Shown: piece after piece, positions 5,763-24,455 of the stretch | How the letters are laid out: each line of letters begins with the position of its first letter | How positions within the stretch are numbered: the first letter of the stretch is position 1 | Source of the DNA: Candidatus Saccharimonadota bacterium | Lineage (GTDB): Bacteria > Patescibacteriota > Gracilibacteria > UBA4473 | NCBI GenBank assembly: GCA_963677105.1 | Contig: OY781871.1 | Span: 1-32,000, forward strand | DNA length: 32,000 nucleotides | Direction of reading: 5' to 3' | The notes under the pieces: generated by a model | Databases searched by the model: none | What the model saw: only the letters and a program-made list of their open reading frames with translations | Told to the model about the DNA's origin: nothing | Made by a program: the position numbers and the translations under genes

Positions 5763-8168
5763 TTAGAGAGTTTCTATGTCATATCCACCGAAAGAGAAAA
5801 ACCCAACAGGTTTTACATTATTTTTTGTTTGAATCCATTCTGGTAAGAAAAGAACAAATCGTAAAGAATCTCCTTGTGCTATTTCACTTGCCATATCAGC
5901 TTTTACGAAAATAGTTTTTGGTCTATTTGTAATTCCTAAGCTTTTATTAAAATATATTTCCACCATATCTCCTTTAAGAGCTGTTTTGTTCGATAAAACA
6001 CTTCCTTCACTTGTTTCAATCCATACTTTGTCAAAGTTTTCAGATGCTCCGTTTCCTACAACCTTCAGTTTTATAGATTGTATTTCTGCAGAATTACTTG
6101 CTGCAAGTTCTAGTTTGTGAACAATCACATTTTTTTGATTTTCTCTCACTCGAATTGATCCGTGTTGAAAGTTACTTGGAGTAGAAACTTTTAGGACATT
6201 AGAGAGATCGCTTCCAGTATTCTCTTCTGTATAAGTAAGATATTTATATATAGCGACAGCAACTTCATTACGAGTTAATAGCTGTGCTGGTTTTAAATAT
6301 CGAGAATCACGATGAGGAAATAAGTTGTACTTGTGTGCTACACCAGCGTATTTTCCAAACCAATCAGAATCAAATGCATCATCGTAGTGATAGATCATTC
6401 CTTTTTGAAGACTAAACGTCTCAGTTAACATCTTCAAAAATTCAGCCGTATTTACCGTTGTAGCTGGTTTAAATAATCCATTTGGATAACCATCTACAAC
6501 TCCTCGTTCAGCAGCTTTTATAACGTATTTCACATACCATTCTCCCTCTTTTACATCTGGAAATCGTCCATTGTTCTGTAAACTCCCAACAGTTACACCA
6601 TCTGCAAGTAATAGGAATTTTGATAATTCTGCACGATTTACATCACGATCACCTTTGAATTCTCCATCAGGGAATCCACCAATAATTGATTTTGATCGGA
6701 GATAAGCAGAGGCTTTCCCTTCAATAGAATTTTTATCAGTATCTGGGAAGTAATATTGTGAAGGAACTACAATTTCTTCGTCTACTGGCACGGTTATCAC
6801 TTCGTCTTCATAGTTTGAATTACTTTCATCTAATTTAAAATCCATACATATGTTTTGGCTTGAACGACTTTGCTTTTGATCTTTTAATGCTCTTACGTAA
6901 TAACAATGTTTCACATAATCCTTTTTTAGTAAATTCTTATTAAGGTTTAGTAAATCATATTGTATATCTTTTAATTCTAATTGATTTTCTTTCGTTGTTG
7001 CAATATAAGAGTACGCTCTATTGTTTACTGATCTATAAACTTGAAATTTGTCTGCACCAGAACTTCCCCATTGTAAAATCCATTTATTGGAACCATTTTT
7101 TCGAATTTTTACATTAAATGGAGCTTTTACAGTTTCTTCTTCGTCTTCATCAAAATCAATACACACTTTTTCACTTGGTTCGCTTTCTTTCCCATTTTTT
7201 AGTCCTGTTGTATAAAAACAAACTTTAGAGACTGGTGTTGAGAAATGATTCCAAAAGAGCATTTTTTTGCTTTCAGTAGATGTCATTGCTCGTTCCCAAG
7301 AAGACGGTTGGTTATTCATATTAAAGTGTTGTGCATACACATTAAATCGTTCTGCATTGTGATTATTCCAGGTCAAATAAAAATTCTGTTTATTATGATT
7401 TGTTTCAGCAGGCATATCTTCTGTGCGTGTAATTTTTAAATTAAAAGGAGGTTTTATAATGGGATTATTTTGTTCTGGTAGACAAGCACCATCTTTACAT
7501 CCATTTGGACATGTGAAAGTATGATCTCCTGCATATTCGCCATTATTACAAACATATTCCTGTAAACGCTTTCCGTCATTCCAACAACTGTCAAATTTTG
7601 TTTTCTTTTCTCCATTATCAGAGATAGTTACCGCTCCTTTTTTATAATAATTTTTACCTCCATCTGTGTCTGTACAAGTTAAATTTCCTGGTTCTGGTTC
7701 TATTACGTTATCTTCAAAATCAATACACACTTTTTCACTTGGTTCACTTTCTTCTCCATTTTTTAGACCGATTGCATAAAAACAAACTCTAGATGTAGGC
7801 TCTATGAAATGATTTCGAAAAAACAATTTCTTCTCTTTGGTAGCATCGGTTACTTTTTCCCAATCAGAAATACTTTCATTTTTATATGAACTTTGTTGGT
7901 ACACTCGAAATTGATCTGCATTATTGTTTTGCCAAGTTAAGTAGAAATCATATGTAGGATTATTTGGAGTTTTTGTGATTTTTAAATTAAAAGGAGGTTT
8001 AATTTCCTGGGACAGTACCTTCGTTCCTAAATCTAGAGACACAACTTTACTCGATAAAAGTGATAAATTGTCTATTGCTTCTACCGTTGGGAATAAAAGA
8101 AAAGAAAAAGTTAGCGCCATTCCCAGAGCAGCTAATCTTTTACCGAAACGCCAGTGAGAAAACTTCAT
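5763..8168 (-). CDS. large secreted surface protein: signal peptide, 3 Fn3-like modules, Cys-rich module, 3 SLH domains, C-terminal beta-rich domain
   Basis: Start set at ATG 8168 (MKFSHWRFGKRLAALGMALTFSFLLFPTVEA, a signal peptide). Three SLH-like repeats: FPD..IGGFPDGEFKGDRDVNRAELSKFL, FPDV..VVDGYPNGLFKPATTVNTAEFLKML and LFPH..YLKPAQLLTRNEVAVAIYKYL. Three repeats begin (I/V)K(P/A)PFN(L/V)KI. The extension in the track to 8309 has no signal peptide. Confidence 0.9.
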   Translation of the reverse strand: MKFSHWRFGKRLAALGMALTFSFLLFPTVEAIDNLSLLSSKVVSLDLGTKVLSQEIKPPFNLKITKTPNNPTYDFYLTWQNNNADQFRVYQQSSYKNESISDWEKVTDATKEKKLFFRNHFIEPTSRVCFYAIGLKNGEESEPSEKVCIDFEDNVIEPEPGNLTCTDTDGGKNYYKKGAVTISDNGEKKTKFDSCWNDGKRLQEYVCNNGEYAGDHTFTCPNGCKDGACLPEQNNPIIKPPFNLKITRTEDMPAETNHNKQNFYLTWNNHNAERFNVYAQHFNMNNQPSSWERAMTSTESKKMLFWNHFSTPVSKVCFYTTGLKNGKESEPSEKVCIDFDEDEEETVKAPFNVKIRKNGSNKWILQWGSSGADKFQVYRSVNNRAYSYIATTKENQLELKDIQYDLLNLNKNLLKKDYVKHCYYVRALKDQKQSRSSQNICMDFKLDESNSNYEDEVITVPVDEEIVVPSQYYFPDTDKNSIEGKASAYLRSKSIIGGFPDGEFKGDRDVNRAELSKFLLLADGVTVGSLQNNGRFPDVKEGEWYVKYVIKAAERGVVDGYPNGLFKPATTVNTAEFLKMLTETFSLQKGMIYHYDDAFDSDWFGKYAGVAHKYNLFPHRDSRYLKPAQLLTRNEVAVAIYKYLTYTEENTGSDLSNVLKVSTPSNFQHGSIRVRENQKNVIVHKLELAASNSAEIQSIKLKVVGNGASENFDKVWIETSEGSVLSNKTALKGDMVEIYFNKSLGITNRPKTIFVKADMASEIAQGDSLRFVLFLPEWIQTKNNVKPVGFFSFGGYDIETL
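6837..8003 (-). repeat. three tandem ~97-104-aa Fn3-like coding repeats, with a Cys-rich insert between repeats 1 and 2
   Basis: Repeat 1 is about 7713-8003, repeat 2 about 7146-7457, repeat 3 about 6837-7127. A 31-nt exact DNA repeat, caaaatcaatacacactttttcacttggttc, occurs at 7151-7181 and 7715-7745. Confidence 0.85.
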
Positions 8169-8210
8169 TATAGAGGGTATTAATAAATAAAATTCGTTTT
8201 TCATTATGAG

Positions 8211-8237
8211 TAACGCGTGAGCTTTGTTTTTGTGACA
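8211..8237 (-). promoter_or_regulatory. ECF-type promoter (TGTCAC-N16-CGTTA) upstream of the SLH protein gene
   Basis: The minus strand reads TGTCACAAAAACAAAGCTCACGCGTTA. It has the same hexamer, spacing and -10 as the site upstream of the adjacent ECF sigma gene. It lies 42 nt upstream of ATG 8168 and just downstream of a terminator. Confidence 0.6.
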
Positions 8238-8260
8238 CAAAAAAAGATGATTTTTATACA

Positions 8261-9207: not shown

Positions 9208-9777
9208 TTACAAATGGGTTTTTAAGTGAACCATCGTACGAAGTTTTTTTAATCCTCGACATTGTACTTGTCGAATGGTTGTTTCTGGCTTTTTCATAAT
9301 AAGCGCAATTTCATTGCTTTTAAATCCGTTTATAAAACGGAGAGTAAGAATTTCACGTTGATCTTCATTCAATAATGAAAGAGCTCGTTGAAGTGCTTCT
9401 TTCGATTCTTTTTGTTGAATTTTACGAGAGGGATTGTCTTCTGAAAAAGCTTCTATTTGAAAATTCGGCATTTCTTCATGAGAAATAAGTATATCTTTTT
9501 TCTTCTTAAAAAAATCAATCACAGTATTTCTTGCTACTGTGAAAAAATAAGCAAGAGGGGAAACACCTTTATCAGAGAATTGTTCTATAGATTTAAATAC
9601 TTTTAGAAAAACAGTTTGAGTTAAATCTTCTGCCGTTTCTTGATCTCCTATACGACGATAAATATATCGAAACACTGGTGTAAAGAAATCGTTATACACC
9701 ATTCCATATGCTTCGCTGTCACCATTCTTTGCAAGAATCATAAGTTCGTCTGGAGATGAGTTAGTATATTCAGTCAT
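9208..9777 (-). CDS. RNA polymerase ECF (sigma-70 family group 4) sigma factor
   Basis: 189 aa. Region 2: FTPVFRYIYRRIGDQETAEDLTQTVFLKVFKSIEQF. Region 4: DQREILTLRFINGFKSNEIALIMKKPETTIRQVQCRGLKKLR. Confidence 0.9.
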   Translation of the reverse strand: MTEYTNSSPDELMILAKNGDSEAYGMVYNDFFTPVFRYIYRRIGDQETAEDLTQTVFLKVFKSIEQFSDKGVSPLAYFFTVARNTVIDFFKKKKDILISHEEMPNFQIEAFSEDNPSRKIQQKESKEALQRALSLLNEDQREILTLRFINGFKSNEIALIMKKPETTIRQVQCRGLKKLRTMVHLKTHL

Positions 9778-9795: not shown

Positions 9796-9822
9796 TAACG
9801 ATTTAATCTTCGTTTTGTGACA
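9796..9822 (-). promoter_or_regulatory. ECF-type autoregulatory promoter (TGTCAC-N16-CGTTA)
   Basis: The minus strand reads TGTCACAAAACGAAGATTAAATCGTTA and ends 18 nt upstream of the sigma ATG at 9777. Confidence 0.6.
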
Positions 9823-16592: not shown

Positions 16593-16994
16593 TTAAGCGA
16601 GCGCCTTTCTTATTATCGCCTCAGGAATATGTTTTTTGAATTTTTTTGTAATTTCTCCCAGAAATACAACATGATGTATTTTCTGTTTCATTTTTAATTT
16701 TTCGATTAACGTAATTATAAATGCTACATAATCTGCGATAAGAGCCATGTCATCATCTTTACTTTTAAGTCTAATTCTTGAATCATTCAAATGAGCGTTA
16801 ACACGCGTTACAACATTTAATAGATACTTGTTATTAACGACATGATTTTTAACTTCAGCTATCCCCAGTTGATTGAATTTATTTTTTAATTCGATCACCT
16901 CGATTTTAACACCCACTGAATCGACTTTAATGGTTAATATGGTATCGTTTTCCTTTAACTTATCACCTAATTCTTCTCTTACTTTTTCATACAT
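16593..16994 (-). CDS. hypothetical protein (no family recognised)
   Basis: 133-aa ORF preceded by AAGGAGtaattATG, the only canonical Shine-Dalgarno sequence I found in this window. It has its own promoter candidates and terminator. Confidence 0.7.
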   Translation of the reverse strand: MYEKVREELGDKLKENDTILTIKVDSVGVKIEVIELKNKFNQLGIAEVKNHVVNNKYLLNVVTRVNAHLNDSRIRLKSKDDDMALIADYVAFIITLIEKLKMKQKIHHVVFLGEITKKFKKHIPEAIIRKALA

Positions 16995-17023: not shown

Positions 17024-17086
17024 TATCAAAGATCTCTTAGTGAGTCTTGTATCAAAGTGATTTCTCACCTAGAAACAGCTTTGATA
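17024..17086. promoter_or_regulatory. three copies of an 8-mer (TATCAAAG x2 direct, CTTTGATA x1 inverted) in the leader region of the 133-aa gene
   Basis: TATCAAAG at 17024-17031 and 17050-17057; CTTTGATA at 17079-17086. GTGA-GAAA-TCAC and GTGAG/CTCAC complementarities lie between them. Confidence 0.5.
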
Positions 17087-17104
17087 ACAATAAACTCTGG
17101 TAGT

Positions 17105-17133
17105 ATATAATACTGTTTACCGCAATTTGTCAA
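17105..17133 (-). promoter_or_regulatory. sigma-70-type promoter candidate for the 133-aa gene (TTGACA-17-TTATAT)
   Basis: Minus strand: TTGACA (17133-17128), 17-nt spacer, TTATAT (17110-17105). This would give a leader of about 100 nt. Confidence 0.5.
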
Positions 17134-17158
17134 ACTGATAAAAATAAATCAATATCTT

Positions 17159-17185
17159 TGACACAAAAAAAACATATCTGCGTAT
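17159..17185 (+). promoter_or_regulatory. ECF-type promoter (TGACAC-N16-CGTAT) upstream of the secreted 196-aa protein gene
   Basis: Reads TGACACAAAAAAAACATATCTGCGTAT. Same architecture as the site upstream of the neighbouring ECF sigma gene. Confidence 0.6.
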
Positions 17186-17239
17186 AAGTGTGTGAGGTTG
17201 GCCAAACTTCCTTACAATTAATTCGTTACTATTTACAAA

Positions 17240-17830
17240 ATGAACAAAAAAATAATTGGTCTCGGTGTAGCAACTCTTTCATTAGGAGTAATGCTCGTTA
17301 CCCCAACAGCAAATGCTTTCTGGGGAGGAAATACTTCTGAAAGTTTTACAGAAATGAAGCAAATGATTCAGTCATTCAATTCATGGGAAGATTTTAGAGA
17401 AGCTATGAAAGAGAAACGTGAAGCAGGAAAAGTGGAACGAGAAACTATGCAAGAAAAAGTTTCACATGAAGTAGAGAAACTTGAAAACGGAGTTGTTATT
17501 ACAACTACTACAGATGATGCTGACGTTTTAGAAAAAATGAAAGAACGACACGAAAAAGGCGAAAACCGACAAGGACGAAATCAAGAAAACGTAGTTCGTT
17601 TAGTTGAAACATTAGAAAACGGGTTTCGTACAACTATTACAACAGAAGATGAAGATACGTTAACACGATTGCACGATCGAGCAGATAACGGATGGAAAAT
17701 GAATCGTAGACACGGGAAACGGAACAAAATGGAAAATCGAAAAGAAGACGGACAGAAGATGAATCGTGGGAAAGGACGACGAGGACAAAGAAATGGATAT
17801 GAATTCGAAGACGAAGTAATAGAAAATTAA
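17240..17830 (+). CDS. secreted, highly charged protein with an internal duplicated motif and a basic C-terminal tail
   Basis: Signal peptide MNKKIIGLGVATLSLGVMLVTPTANA. Two copies of the motif: VEKLENGVVITTTTDDADVLEKM and VETLENGFRTTITTEDEDTLTRL. Arg/Lys/Asn-rich tail. Confidence 0.8.
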   Translation: MNKKIIGLGVATLSLGVMLVTPTANAFWGGNTSESFTEMKQMIQSFNSWEDFREAMKEKREAGKVERETMQEKVSHEVEKLENGVVITTTTDDADVLEKMKERHEKGENRQGRNQENVVRLVETLENGFRTTITTEDEDTLTRLHDRADNGWKMNRRHGKRNKMENRKEDGQKMNRGKGRRGQRNGYEFEDEVIEN

Positions 17831-17851
17831 AGAAAAAAGTATTTTCAAAAG

Positions 17852-17884
17852 AATCGCTCCAAGGAATCGGGGCGATTTTTTTAT
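17852..17884 (+). terminator. rho-independent terminator after the 196-aa gene
   Basis: AATCGCTCC (17852-17860) pairs with GGGGCGATT (17869-17877), one mismatch, followed by a T-run. Confidence 0.75.
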
Positions 17885-17895
17885 GGAGTATTTTT

Positions 17896-17922
17896 TGACA
17901 CAAAATGAAAATTAAGGCGTAC
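17896..17922 (+). promoter_or_regulatory. ECF-type autoregulatory promoter (TGACAC-N16-CGTAC)
   Basis: Reads TGACACAAAATGAAAATTAAGGCGTAC and ends 10 nt upstream of the sigma ATG at 17933. Confidence 0.6.
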
Positions 17923-17932
17923 TTATTTCTGA

Positions 17933-18508
17933 ATGAAAGATTTTTCTACTTATTCTGATGAACAATTAATCCCTCTTTCTTTGGAGAATGAAGAAGCGTT
18001 TGGGGAAATTGTTCATCGTTATGAATCGCGATTAAGACGATACGTTTTTCGTATTGCATCCTTCCCAGAGGAAGAAGTAGAAGAGATTTTGCAAGACGTA
18101 TTTCTTTCGGTTTGGAAAAATCTTCGTGGATTTGATACAAAAATAAAATTCAGTAGTTGGGTTTATCGTATTGCTCATAATCGAACGATTTCATTATTTC
18201 GGAAATTCAAAACTCGTGGACGAGATAAAGAAACAGGGTTGACACCTGATTTATTTTTGCCAACCACAGAAAATTTCATTGATGATTTTGATTCACAGAT
18301 TAACGCAAAACTTATTCAATCAGCATTAGAAGAAATACCAAATAAATATAGTGAAATTCTTATCTTACGGTTTTTTGAGGATTTGTCTTACGATGAAATT
18401 GCGGACGTATTAAAATGCTCAATTGGAACTGTGAGCACGCTTATCGCACGGGCAAAAAAGAAGTTCCGTGCAGTGATAGATGAATTAAATATTCCATTTT
18501 CAAAATGA
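17933..18508 (+). CDS. RNA polymerase ECF sigma factor (second paralogue)
   Basis: 191 aa. Region 2: RLRRYVFRIASFPEEEVEEILQDVFLSVWKNLRGFD and WVYRIAHNRTISLFRK. Region 4: YSEILILRFFEDLSYDEIADVLKCSIGTVSTLIARAKKKFR. Confidence 0.9.
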   Translation: MKDFSTYSDEQLIPLSLENEEAFGEIVHRYESRLRRYVFRIASFPEEEVEEILQDVFLSVWKNLRGFDTKIKFSSWVYRIAHNRTISLFRKFKTRGRDKETGLTPDLFLPTTENFIDDFDSQINAKLIQSALEEIPNKYSEILILRFFEDLSYDEIADVLKCSIGTVSTLIARAKKKFRAVIDELNIPFSK

Positions 18509-19284
18509 AGAAAAATTTCACCGATTCCGTTTTAAAAACAATTCGTGCAAAAAAAATAACTCCACGTGAGCGATCATATTTTATTGCCAAAACAGTTATT
18601 CAAATAGCTGCAGGAATTGCGTTCTTTCTGTTTGGAATGTTGTCAGTTGCACTTGTATTTCATTTAATAAATAATTTCGCTTTTGCAGAGTTCATTCTTA
18701 ATCATCCTCAACTCTTAAGAAAATTATTTTGGTTCGGAGTTCCTGTTTTTTGGGTAGTTCTTTCTGTTTTATTATGGTTTGTTATAGAGCAAATTGTACG
18801 CGAAACAAAACGAGTGTATCGAATGTCGTTTGGTGTAATCGGAATACTTGTTTTATCGATTCAGGTTTTAGGAGGTTTTATTCTCGAACAATCTCAAGTA
18901 GGGGAACAAGTTGATCTCATTTTTGAACAAAGAATGAATTGGTATCATGGAGCACAAAAAATCAATAGACGTCTTGAGCGCATGCCAGAACATGGATTTT
19001 TGGTAGGAGAAGTTTTGAAAGTAAAGTCGGATTCTTTGATTTTTTTAAACGATATTATGAATAAAGAATGGGAAGTTTATCTTGAGAGTAAAAGAAGACC
19101 ACCATTTGAAATAAAAAAGGGAATGAAGCTTCGTATGATAGGAGAAATGCGTGGAGAAAATGAATTTAAGGCAATTGATTGGAAACCAGCAAGAGATCGT
19201 CGCCCTCCGCTACACAAAAGAAGAAATTCATTTAAAAAAGATGAACGAGGAATGCGTCCACCTTTTCATAATCGGTTAGAGTAG
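18505..19284 (+). CDS. putative multi-pass membrane anti-sigma factor with a C-terminal soluble domain and basic tail
   Basis: 259 aa. ATGA overlap with the sigma gene. About 4 hydrophobic helices between aa 25 and 130, then a soluble domain (FLVGEVLKVKSDSLIFLND...). Function inferred from position. Confidence 0.55.
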   Translation: MKKNFTDSVLKTIRAKKITPRERSYFIAKTVIQIAAGIAFFLFGMLSVALVFHLINNFAFAEFILNHPQLLRKLFWFGVPVFWVVLSVLLWFVIEQIVRETKRVYRMSFGVIGILVLSIQVLGGFILEQSQVGEQVDLIFEQRMNWYHGAQKINRRLERMPEHGFLVGEVLKVKSDSLIFLNDIMNKEWEVYLESKRRPPFEIKKGMKLRMIGEMRGENEFKAIDWKPARDRRPPLHKRRNSFKKDERGMRPPFHNRLE

Positions 19285-19336: not shown

Positions 19337-20310
19337 TAGATGTTTTTCAAAACCTTACGTCCGTTTTTTGTAGCAATATTTACCAAGTCATTTACGTCAT
19401 AGTGACGTGTTGTTTCCATAAGGAAAATCAATTCCGTAAAGAGATTTCCGTCGATAAAAGGACAAAAGAAGTCATACACATTATCAACTCCCAAAGCGAC
19501 ATTTACTCCTGCTTCAAGAAGTTGTGGAACTGGTCCAATAGAGTTGTGAACGGGAGCCATTTTGTGTCGTGGTTGCTGATTATCGATCATTGCTCGAGGA
19601 GAAATAATCACCGACATATCAGCTTCTTTCAACATTTGTGCGACATCTTTTATATAATCATCTGGTTGCGCAGAAAGAGAACAAGAATGAACCGCATTTA
19701 CGCGTCCTTGCATTCCGTGTTTCATAACAGATTTTGCAAGCATTTCTGTATCACGTTCATCTGGATCATTGTTTTGATCAATATGAACATCAACGGTTTT
19801 ATTTAAATCTTTCGCTAAGCCAAACAAAAACTCTAAATGAGCTTCTTCGTTTGGACGATCACGAGAGGGAAGTCCTCCCAGTAAATCTACATACGGAGCA
19901 GCTTTTCGAATCATTGCTTGCGCTTCTGGTGTCATTGCTCCTTCCAGCACTTGAGAGCAGATTTGAAAATCTATTTTGTCAGCGTATTTTTCTTTCACAG
20001 CAAGAGCTGCTTCTACACATTTCATTCCAACCGTATTGTCTACATCGATATTACTTCTTACGATGTCACATCCTTGGTTTATGAAATTTTCAACACTGCG
20101 AGAGATTCGTTCAACTAACCCGTCGTGCGTGTAATTTTCTTTTACTTCTTTCCAAAGATCCCATTTTACTTCCATGTGATCGTTACACATTTGAAGTTTT
20201 TCGGGAGTGATTACATACGCTTTATCAAAGTGTGCGTGACAACACACTGGACCTCCAGCAGCAGTAACTTTTTCGCGAAGGTGTTCGAGCATGTTCCAAG
20301 GTTCGGCCAT
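19336..20310 (-). CDS. metal-dependent amidohydrolase, cytosine deaminase (CodA)-like
   Basis: 324 aa. Metal motif CCHAHFD, then VDVHIDQNNDPDERD, VNAVHSCSL and LGVDNVYDFFCP, which line up with the CodA HxH / H / H / D metal ligands. Shorter than E. coli CodA. Confidence 0.7.
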   Translation of the reverse strand: MAEPWNMLEHLREKVTAAGGPVCCHAHFDKAYVITPEKLQMCNDHMEVKWDLWKEVKENYTHDGLVERISRSVENFINQGCDIVRSNIDVDNTVGMKCVEAALAVKEKYADKIDFQICSQVLEGAMTPEAQAMIRKAAPYVDLLGGLPSRDRPNEEAHLEFLFGLAKDLNKTVDVHIDQNNDPDERDTEMLAKSVMKHGMQGRVNAVHSCSLSAQPDDYIKDVAQMLKEADMSVIISPRAMIDNQQPRHKMAPVHNSIGPVPQLLEAGVNVALGVDNVYDFFCPFIDGNLFTELIFLMETTRHYDVNDLVNIATKNGRKVLKNI

Positions 20311-20340: not shown

Positions 20341-21669
20341 TTATCGACGCATTTTATCAATTTCTTTCTGTAATTTATCAAGTCCAAGATTTCCAGTACC
20401 ACCTTGGTGTGTTGAAAGTTTCATCATTTCTTTTACTTCATCAGCGTTAATCTCAATATTTGCAATATGAGACCCAACTTCTCGATATGCGTCTCGGAAA
20501 GTCATACCTGTTTTTACCAGTTCAAATGCTTTGTGTGCAGCAAACAATCCTGGTGAATCAAGTGAAGATTGCATCATGACTTCTTCATTTGGTGAAACAT
20601 TCGCGATAATCGCACGAGAAGCATCAAGACACATTTCTGTGTAACGAAGCCCGAGAAAGAGCGGTCGTTTAATTTCTTGTCCATCACGATGATATCCAAG
20701 AATTTTATGCATAATGTTTGTCGACATTTCGTTTCGGCACGCAAATACGGTTGCTGTTCGTCCACGAATTAATTCTGCTACGTCCAAATTTTTCTTTTGT
20801 GGCATAATTGATGAACCCGTTGCAATTGAGTCATCCATATGAAAAAATTGGAATTCTTGTGTTGTGAAAAACAACATATCAGAAGCAAATTTATTTAGTG
20901 TAAGCATAGTGTTGCAACATGCTTCAAGAACAAGTCCTTCGAATTTTCCACGTGAGTTTTGACAATAAATTGGATTTGCTTGTGTACGATTAAATCCAAG
21001 TTCTTTACTCAGCCAATCTCTATCGAAGTCAAATGGAGAACCATATCCTGCTCCTGAACCAAGTGGATTTTGGTCAATAATTTCATCTGTAATTACAGTA
21101 AGCAGTCGAGCATCATCTAGGAGTTCTTCAACAAATGATCCGGCCCACGTTCCGACACTTGTTGGCATTGCTTTTTGCATGTGAGTATACCCAGGCATTG
21201 GCACAAATTCGTATTCTTTTGCAAAGGCAAGAAAGTCGTCTGCAACGTCTAGAATTTTCTCTCGCATTGCTACTGCTTTATTTTTCAAGAAGTATCGCAT
21301 CATTACCAAAACTTGATCGTTTCGAGAACGTCCAGTGTGAATTTTCTTTCCTGTGTCTCCCAATTTTTCAATCAAATATTCTTCAATTTTTGTATGACAG
21401 TCTTCGTCTTCCACTTTGAGTTGGAATTCTCCTTTTTCCCATAGTTTCAAAATATCATCGAGTCCTTCTTCTAGTTGTTTTAATTCTTCTTTAGAAATGA
21501 GATTGTGTCGCTGAATCATTCGTGCGTAGCATCGACTACACCAAACATCATCCGGAATCATTATTTGATCGTAATGAATATCTTCTCCAGCATTAAATTC
21601 TTCAACAATTCGGTTTAAATCAACATCTTTGTTTTTAAACCAAATTTTCTTTTTTATAGTATTGGACAT
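20341..21669 (-). CDS. argH: argininosuccinate lyase
   Basis: 442 aa. TGRSRNDQV and GSSIMPQKKNLDVAELIRG are fumarate-lyase-superfamily signatures in the ArgH form. Confidence 0.85.
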   Translation of the reverse strand: MSNTIKKKIWFKNKDVDLNRIVEEFNAGEDIHYDQIMIPDDVWCSRCYARMIQRHNLISKEELKQLEEGLDDILKLWEKGEFQLKVEDEDCHTKIEEYLIEKLGDTGKKIHTGRSRNDQVLVMMRYFLKNKAVAMREKILDVADDFLAFAKEYEFVPMPGYTHMQKAMPTSVGTWAGSFVEELLDDARLLTVITDEIIDQNPLGSGAGYGSPFDFDRDWLSKELGFNRTQANPIYCQNSRGKFEGLVLEACCNTMLTLNKFASDMLFFTTQEFQFFHMDDSIATGSSIMPQKKNLDVAELIRGRTATVFACRNEMSTNIMHKILGYHRDGQEIKRPLFLGLRYTEMCLDASRAIIANVSPNEEVMMQSSLDSPGLFAAHKAFELVKTGMTFRDAYREVGSHIANIEINADEVKEMMKLSTHQGGTGNLGLDKLQKEIDKMRR

Positions 21670-21799: not shown

Positions 21800-21889
21800 G
21801 GAGAAGTGCCAGAGTGGTCGAATGGGGCACCCTGCTAAGGTGTTGTACTCGCAAGGGTACCGAGGGTTCGAATCCCTCCTTCTCCGCCA
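21800..21889 (+). tRNA. tRNA-Ser (anticodon GCU), long variable arm, encoded CCA
   Basis: Acceptor GGAGAAG/CTTCTCC. Anticodon arm GCACC-CTGCTAA-GGTGT. Long extra arm. T-arm GAGGGTTCGAATCCCTC. 3' GCCA. Confidence 0.9.
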
Positions 21890-21965: not shown

Positions 21966-22040
21966 GCCGAGATAGCTCAGGGGTAGAGCAACACATTCGT
22001 AACGTGTAGGTCGTGAGTTCGATTCTCATTCTCGGCTCCA
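21966..22040 (+). tRNA. tRNA-Thr (anticodon CGU), encoded CCA
   Basis: Acceptor GCCGAGA/TCTCGGC. D-arm GCTCAGGGGTAGAGC. Anticodon loop TTCGTAA with an A-C mismatch at the base of the stem. T-arm GTGAGTTCGATTCTCAT. A candidate promoter ATGACA-16-TATCAT lies at 21930-21957. Confidence 0.85.
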
Positions 22041-24380: not shown

Positions 24381-24455
24381 TGGTATCGCCAAGGGGAATC
24401 GAACCCCTGTTGCTGGAATGAAAATCCAGAGTCCTAACCACTAGACGATGGCGAC
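24381..24455 (-). tRNA. tRNA-Glu (anticodon UUC), encoded CCA
   Basis: The reverse complement reads GTCGCCATCGTCTAGTGGTTAGGACTCTGGATTTTCATTCCAGCAACAGGGGTTCGATTCCCCTTGGCGATACCA. This is a clean cloverleaf with anticodon loop TTTTCAT. Confidence 0.9.

Follow-up and report, generated by a model that had tools for sequence, protein, structure and literature searches.

Within the 32,000 nucleotides (nt) of contig OY781871.1 analysed here (hereafter the window), positions 17159–19284 carry three genes on the forward strand, which encode a secreted protein of 196 amino acids (aa) (17240–17830), an extracytoplasmic function (ECF, group 4) sigma factor of 191 aa that we call sigma 2 (17933–18508), and a 259-aa membrane protein that is a candidate anti-sigma factor and sensor (18505–19284). 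An ECF-type promoter motif lies upstream of the secreted-protein gene (17159–17184), an autoregulatory one lies upstream of the sigma operon (17896–17921), and an intrinsic terminator (17847–17886) stands between the two units. Self-activating ECF sigma modules are textbook systems, and in kind this one, referred to below as module 2, is a standard ECF sigma module. We consider it likely that the stretch forms a self-contained, self-activating module with two matching promoters, working as a whole by the mechanism proposed below.

The first motif reads TGACACAAAAAAAACATATCTGCGTAT at 17159–17185 and comprises a −35 box, TGACAC (17159–17164), an A-tract, a 16-nt spacer and a −10 box, CGTA (17181–17184). 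The second reads TGACACAAAATGAAAATTAAGGCGTAC at 17896–17922 and has the same TGACAC, 16-nt spacer and CGTA. Both 27-mers had been reported in an earlier note made from the sequence alone, with exact positions and letters. The exact pattern TGACAC-N16-CGTA occurred twice in the window as compared with 0.04 expected from dinucleotide-preserving shuffles of the window, and none of 100 shuffles reached two copies. For the looser pattern TGWCAC-N16-CGT we counted five matches against 0.19 expected, a value that makes the earlier estimate of about one chance match a conservative one. The earlier note had listed four such matches, all intergenic and correctly oriented; these four are indeed non-coding and each points at the gene that it precedes, but the total is five. 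The fifth (20217–20241, reverse strand) is intragenic and, since it is absent from relatives with the same gene, is probably due to chance. This match, TGTCAC-N16-CGTA at 20216–20241 (−), and a near-match, TGCCAC-N16-CGTA at 20779–20804 (−), lie in the amidohydrolase and lyase genes of the window; as promoters both were rejected as chance occurrences, not being conserved in two related loci that have these genes (L089 and L091). ECF autoregulatory promoters usually combine an AAC-type −35 with a CGT-type −10 at a distance of 16–17 nt. The site at 17896–17921 has both elements at the right distance, with a −35 that ends in CAC instead of AAC.

To follow the motifs in relatives, we used close loci found by exact-protein look-ups (L086, L087/88, L089/90, L091 and L092; six loci, five of them distinct), in which sigma 2 was 55–76% identical, a more distant sister clade (L001–L006) with sigma factors 46–56% and secreted proteins 28–40% identical to those of the window, and a wider comparison of 93 loci of the sigma-2 family. 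At the promoter of the secreted-protein gene, TGACACAA and CGTA were invariant in six related loci and the spacers drifted (alignment A2). At the sigma promoter TTTTTTGACACAAAA was invariant (alignment A3) and GCGTA was identical in five of the six loci, the sixth (L092) retaining CGTA with a 17-nt spacer. The earlier note had named a lack of conservation in relatives as grounds for rejecting its reading, and both motifs proved to be conserved, with invariant boxes and drifting spacers; the final Y of its proposed CGTAY did not hold up, as L087 reads CGTAA. In each related locus of about 8 kb, the motif was present exactly twice, on the coding strand, upstream of the secreted-protein and sigma genes, and nowhere else, and the order secreted protein, sigma, 259-aa-like protein was retained in all close relatives. 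The sister clade has the same three genes, and both its promoters read TGAAAG-N16/17-CGTA, while the secreted-gene promoter of a further locus, L099, reads TGAAAC-N16-CGTA. In these alignments the two −35 boxes change together across clades, as expected if a single sigma reads both promoters, and this co-variation is the strongest evidence suggesting that one sigma serves both sites. On these comparative grounds, the reading of both motifs as promoters, with autoregulation of the sigma operon, is strongly supported.

The same alignments bear on the possibility that a housekeeping sigma-70 reads the sites. TTGACA occurs at 17158–17163 and 17895–17900, within TTTGACAC, and TATAAG at 17183–17188, after the CG in CGTATAAG, but the two would have to function at a 19-nt spacing. 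Moreover, any of the four bases (G, A, C or T) can stand before TGACAC in relatives, the AC and AA that follow TTGAC are invariant, and the invariance at the −10 is that of CGTA, the TATAAT-like positions varying (TATCAA, TATGAG, TACCAG, TACTTA). A consensus scan called neither site, and we regard a sigma-70 origin of the two motifs as highly improbable. About 50 nt upstream of the secreted-gene ECF promoter, at 17084–17111 (+), there is a separate sigma-70-like match, ATAACA-16-TATAAT (10/12), which may give basal expression of the secreted-protein gene; the upstream neighbours differ in relatives. A different proposal, that the repeated 26-mer is the operator of a DNA-binding regulator or a mere chance repeat, is scarcely credible. 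The conserved, partly palindromic TGA[AG]G just downstream of the secreted-gene site could be cited in its favour, with no specific support otherwise, but the repeat consists of bipartite boxes around a variable spacer of fixed length, which is the general form of an ECF promoter, is strongly enriched, lies at a fixed position relative to the start codons, and co-varies with a specificity residue of the sigma factor.

The ECF assignment of sigma 2 by the earlier note was borne out by Pfam matches to Sigma70_r2 (E = 5e-14) and Sigma70_r4_2 (E = 2e-16), regions 1 and 3 remaining without a match, and by a score of 99.6 bits against TIGR02937, above its cutoff of 42.9. As that note also stated, only two ECF sigma genes are present in the window. 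The nearest named NCBIfam family of sigma 2 is SigW, at scores far below the cutoffs of the SigW equivalogs (NF007223 / TIGR02948; 100.3 bits vs 209 and 93.5 bits vs 243.1), and its closest solved structure is Bacillus subtilis SigW (5wuq, E = 6e-21). The promoters of the family agree with this placement. In distant sigma-2 family loci TGAAA[G/T/C]-N16/17-CGT was found upstream of the sigma gene in 38 cases, 23 of them TGAAAG, a motif nearly the same as the SigW consensus of B. subtilis, TGAAAC / CGTA (PMC5758882). Among the 93 loci, TGACAC was restricted to the monophyletic clade of the window. Because the wider family uses TGAAAG/T/C, the TGACAC of this clade is best read as a derived variant of a SigW-like TGAAAG/TGAAAC −35.

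To identify residues that could accompany this change, we compared the six sigma factors of the TGACAC clade with 21 of the TGAAAG type and found that only three columns separate the groups completely, R35, T111 and S168. Ser168 opens the recognition helix of region 4.2 and corresponds in the alignment to Arg171 of Escherichia coli RpoE (gtvStli vs gtvRsri); the replacement of Ala/Gly by Ser at this position is the sole clade-specific substitution in the recognition helix. We take the last base of the hexamer to be −31, by matching the AAC of GGAAC to the last three bases; the register follows the RpoE numbering and is presumed from that match. This base changed from G to C, one of two hexamer positions that changed. 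In the saturation mutagenesis of Todor et al. (2020), the Arg171 position of RpoE sets the −31 base, and Ser172 was linked to −34, Phe175 to −32 and Asn84 to −12/−13 (PMC7776599). Sigma 2 carries Asn83 at the position equivalent to Asn84, alongside the conserved CGT. When loci with a detected motif were sorted by the Arg171-equivalent residue, the 25 with Ala had TGAAAG in 19 cases, the 12 with Gly had TGAAAT in six and TGAAAG in four, and the eight with Ser, all from one clade, had TGACAC in every case. A prospective check was provided by a further sigma, P0028, which has Ser outside that clade and is sister to that of an Ala/TGAAAG locus (L093); its locus, L099, has TGAAAC at the secreted-gene promoter. 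Judged by its position in the family, this is a second, independent Ala-to-Ser change paired with G to C. Taken together, these comparisons suggest that the change from TGAAAG to TGACAC probably involved Ala to Ser at the equivalent of RpoE Arg171. The variation in the clade of the window is natural, in contrast to the engineered variation of the Todor code, and its Arg171-equivalent change coincides with the change of the last base of the hexamer.

The other ECF sigma gene of the window, that of sigma 1 (9208–9777, −), belongs to a second system, module 1, and has its own autoregulatory promoter, TGTCAC-N16-CGTT, at 9797–9822 (−). A further TGTCAC-N16-CGTT site at 8212–8237 (−) precedes the gene of a large SLH-domain protein. 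Upstream of the sigma-1 orthologues in L094, L095/L096 and L098, TGTCACAA-N14-CGTT was conserved, L097 having GGTCAC; the orthologues compared (L094–L098) were 50–75% identical. At the L095 site before the related large protein, TGTCAC was retained and AGTT stood in place of CGTT. As far as conservation among orthologues can tell, the promoter codes of both modules are real. Tandem TGTCAC-N16-CGTT sites were also observed in L095, at 727–752 and 791–816, upstream of one sigma-1 orthologue (also in L096). The module 1 target itself (5763–8207, −) matches the SLH domain at E = 3e-19. Its first in-frame ATG (8205) lies just 7 nt after CGTT, and for this reason we prefer the ATG at 8169, which opens a signal peptide, MKFSHWRFGKRLAALGMALTF…, as the probable true start. 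On the strand opposite the promoter of this gene, at 8233–8240 (+), the module 2 −35 box TGACACAA can be read, with TATA and not CGTA 16 nt downstream; this is probably a sequence by-product, as GTGTCAC and GTGACAC are reverse complements.

The two modules are alike in that an ECF sigma is followed by a membrane protein, module 1 having a secreted coiled-coil protein, and in that each has an autoregulatory and a second site with a 16-nt spacer, an A-tract and a motif conserved among its own orthologues. An AAAA tract follows the −35 in all ECF sites of the window (17165–17168, 17902–17905, 9813–9816 and 8228–8231) and also in related loci, so the −35-proximal A-tract is common to the sites of both sigma families. 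The earlier note had proposed that the modules are duplicates which diverged just enough to insulate their regulons. A common origin in one ancestral module of sigma, anti-sigma and secreted protein, with codes minimally diverged for insulation, would account for the similar gene content (sigma, membrane protein, small secreted charged protein) and the near-identical motifs. The proteins themselves argue otherwise, as the two sigmas are only 27% identical, neither the membrane partners (E = 27) nor the secreted proteins (E = 0.1) show detectable similarity, and the nearest families differ, sigma 2 being SigW-like and sigma 1 BldN-like (TIGR02952, 142.4 bits, below the cutoff of 206.45). The residue equivalent to Arg171 is Arg in sigma 1 and Ser in sigma 2. 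Gene order differs as well: the relatives of module 1 keep their own order of sigma, 166-aa and 126-aa proteins, without module 2 proteins, and the ATGA overlap that the earlier note described for both modules is found in module 2 (18505–18508) and is absent from module 1, where the sigma and partner genes are 1 nt apart. Finally, since the sigma-2 family ancestrally used TGAAAG, the one-base likeness of TGACAC to TGTCAC is a derived convergence and not a minimal divergence. We consequently consider the duplication very unlikely.

A more serious question is whether the two co-resident sigmas both read both promoter types, the one-base differences failing to insulate them. Such overlapping regulons seem unlikely to us, though they deserve real consideration. 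The codes differ by one base in the −35 (TGACAC/TGTCAC) and one in the −10 (CGTA/CGTT) and share the same spacer length and A-tract, and the sigma-2 code evolved toward that of sigma 1. In B. subtilis the ECF sigmas M, W, X and V recognise overlapping promoter sets, and regulon overlap is common (PMC5758882). The base after CGT, however, is known to discriminate sigma W, X and M (PMC5758882), and single promoter-base changes strongly affect ECF activity (PMC7776599). Each code is also held within its own orthologous group, the sites of the TGACAC clade always having A at hexamer position 3 together with CGTA and those of sigma 1 having T, or GGTCAC, together with CGTT, and the recognition helices of the two sigmas differ (GTVSTLIARAKK vs TTIRQVQCRGLK).

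The position of the second promoter relative to its gene allowed us to predict the transcript that it would produce. In the window (17922–17935), L086, L087, L089 and L091, five of the six distinct sigma loci of the clade, 11 nt separate CGTA from the sigma ATG; the exception is L092, with a sigma leader of about 55 nt. Taking the A of CGTA as −11, this fixed CGTA-N11-ATG spacing predicts a transcript that probably begins at, or 1 nt before, the sigma ATG, and hence an mRNA that is probably leaderless or has a leader of 1 nt. At the first promoter, in turn, 55 nt separate the −10 from the ATG (17185–17239), a stretch in which transcription would start and which would include the mRNA leader of the secreted protein. 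A TGAGG at 17193–17197 starts 9 nt after CGTA, and TGA[AG]G is present at exactly this offset in 12 of 12 aligned secreted-gene promoters from two clades (L001–L006 and L086–L092), with TGAGA at the same offset in L099, from a third clade. This conserved element is predicted to fall in the start-site region. A 5′ hairpin is predicted at 17191–17216 (UGUGAGG…CCUUACA, −10 kcal/mol, z = −2.8), which may be an mRNA-stabilising stem-loop. The hairpin is kept in L091 and L092, where G-C pairs have been replaced by A-U, and in these two loci and the window its folding energy is −9 to −10 kcal/mol (z = −2.5 to −4.2); it is weaker in L089 and absent from the TGAAAG clade. The leader gave no Rfam match. 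Two further ideas were rejected: a general leader riboregulator, as there is no consensus RNA structure across both clades, and a small upstream open reading frame (ORF) from a conserved GTG, which in the window reads GTG-TGA and has inconsistent frames in relatives.

The terminator between the two units, already proposed in the earlier note, is a genuine intrinsic terminator. Its hairpin (17847–17882) has a core stem of 17852–17860 paired with 17869–17877, is followed by a U-tract and folds at −19.2 kcal/mol (z = −5.2). In six relatives the stem was 100% paired with three of nine pairs changed on both sides, as compared with at most 51% pairing in slid controls. The gene that it ends encodes a protein whose signal peptide ends …TANA|FWGG and whose disordered, basic tail is rich in Gly, Arg and Lys. 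In the AlphaFold2 model (mean predicted local distance difference test score, pLDDT, 62; core 70–87), two helices are followed by two repeats of a beta-hairpin and a helix and then by the tail, and these structural repeats match the sequence repeats VEKLENGVVITTTTDD… and VETLENGFRTTITTED…. A word search returned nine homologues, and tblastn detected the gene upstream of the sigma in 13 related loci and in L099; by both searches the protein is confined to this set of clades. Faint, sub-threshold OmpH/Skp-like matches were the only resemblance, and an envelope-associated or chaperone-like role is a guess.

The gene downstream of sigma 2, coupled to it in translation by the ATGA overlap, appears to be its partner. 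In 59 of the 93 loci, which come from several phyla and include CPR (candidate phyla radiation), Saprospiraceae and Desulfatiglandales-type genomes, the gene that directly follows the sigma encodes a homologue of the 259-aa protein, and the family comprises 1358 cluster representatives at E ≤ 1e-3 in a library clustered at 50% identity. Neither zf-HC2 nor any other Pfam family matched the protein, and solved structures gave no match to its sequence; across 60 relatives, Pfam matches were only scattered and weak, mostly to membrane-protein families, and source annotations of family members read 'hypothetical protein' only. In its AlphaFold2 model (pLDDT 84) an N-terminal helix (5–16) precedes three membrane helices (23–56, 70–100 and 109–129) and two further helices, and the C-terminal part is a five-stranded barrel (165–228) followed by a disordered basic tail. 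Foldseek matched the barrel to the OB-folds of IF1, eIF1A, Ten1 and CcmE. From the basic N-terminus and the basic loop between membrane helices 2 and 3, the positive-inside rule would put the OB-fold on the extracytoplasmic side. Few parts of the family are as well conserved as the N-terminal motif S..VL.KIK...I.P.PKW.F, a feature that fits a cytoplasmic binding function. What is asked of an anti-sigma factor as a gene, co-transcription with the sigma and conservation beside it, was found here (ATGA overlap, 59/93 loci), whereas the N-terminal bundle of three to four helices in 80–90 residues that defines class I was not, a single helix (5–16) preceding the membrane helix at 23. On genomic context and predicted topology, a role as an anti-sigma factor is plausible.

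On the basis of these results, we propose that RNA polymerase with sigma 2 would recognise the two promoters TGACAC(AAAA)-N16-CGTA. From the first it would transcribe the monocistronic gene of the secreted, highly charged 196-aa protein, ending at the intrinsic terminator, and from the second the operon of sigma 2 itself, resulting in positive autoregulation. The 259-aa protein, with a cytoplasmic helix of about 20 residues, three membrane passes and an extracytoplasmic OB-fold domain, would most likely keep sigma 2 inactive at the membrane until a signal, which we infer to come from the envelope, frees it.

Several points weigh against this proposal. The support for sigma 2 as the reader of the sites, as opposed to sigma 1 or both, is indirect, and the co-variation of the two −35 boxes stems from few independent evolutionary events, two or at most three. 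L099 yielded no sigma-proximal promoter. One distant sigma with Ser at the specificity position (L029) is preceded by a candidate TGCAAG, and the pairing of Ser with C at −31 therefore does not hold strictly; for the second hexamer change, A to C at −33, no protein counterpart was identified. The 259-aa protein has no recognisable anti-sigma domain, no zinc motif and a single short pre-membrane helix. As for the 196-aa protein, it has no Pfam or NCBIfam family and its model gave no significant fold match.

Among known systems, module 2 most resembles SigW-RsiW of B. subtilis (ECF30-type), with which it shares the promoter geometry, the −10 CGTA, a sigma with regions 2 and 4 only, a sigma gene followed by the gene of a membrane partner, a positive autoregulation that is probable in module 2, and an envelope or secreted target. 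It differs from SigW in the −35 of its clade, TGACAC and not TGAAAC, and in the tract after the −35, which is of A and not T; in B. subtilis ECF promoters, replacement of the T-tract by A5 abolishes activity (PMC5758882). The 259-aa partner also departs from RsiW: a zinc-binding anti-sigma domain is missing, the model crosses the membrane with three helices and not with one, and an OB-fold is predicted on the outer side. Anti-sigma factors of class II/III, such as CnrY and NepR, have a short sigma-binding part as compared with the class I domain of about 80 residues. The cytoplasmic sigma-binding part of the 259-aa protein would likewise be very short, a likeness by description only, but CnrY and NepR are without a three-helix membrane domain and an OB-fold.

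A broader interpretation is that the 259-aa protein stands for a class of membrane anti-sigma factors that is very widespread and has so far no annotation. Its >1300 clusters (50% identity) come from genomes of CPR, Bacteroidota and Desulfobacterota type, and its members would be built from a minimal cytoplasmic sigma-binding helix of about 20 residues, three membrane helices and an extracytoplasmic OB-fold sensor. Linked to this is the proposal that the −35 was naturally rewired from TGAAAG to TGACAC through Ala to Ser with both promoters co-evolving. We advance this combined claim tentatively, and lean somewhat against it; if true, the rewired code sits one base from that of a co-resident, unrelated ECF sigma. 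More generally, we find the system modestly interesting for three features: a derived −35 code tied to a known specificity position, a partner family that is large and lacks annotation, and, for a CPR genome, an autoregulated sigma transcript that is probably leaderless. To our knowledge, CPR bacteria are not culturable and their regulation is essentially undescribed, and the module would offer a circuit in this group validated by comparative genomics, a promoter code, TGACACAA-N14-CGTA, with which regulons in the clade of the window could be predicted, an example from nature on which the published ECF specificity code can be tested, and a large family of sigma-linked membrane proteins flagged as anti-sigma candidates. 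In the literature that was searched, no description of ECF promoter motifs in these phyla was found, and the text of the paper on ECF classification 2.0 (Casas-Pastor 2021) does not mention CPR phyla.

With regard to the window as a whole, about 91% is coding and 9% non-coding, the standard genetic code leaves its ORFs intact, and its proteins are encoded on a contig of 962 kb. Its nearest relatives in the genome collection, among the matches listed, were Peribacteria, Gracilibacteria, Peregrinibacteria and other Patescibacteria metagenome-assembled genomes. A metagenome scan with the single sigma 2 sequence returned only proteins 24–35% identical to it. In three Saccharibacteria-labelled loci (L020, L023 and L041), a conserved sequence that looks tRNA-like by eye lies directly upstream of the sigma homologue, with no ECF-type motif visible. 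Divergent from the secreted-protein gene is a 133-aa ORF (16593–16994, −) for which neither a Pfam family nor a homologue in any of the retrieved loci was found, and which may be an orphan or not a gene. Further downstream, three tRNA genes (Rfam RF00005) were located at 21800–21886 (+), 21966–22037 (+) and 24384–24455 (−).

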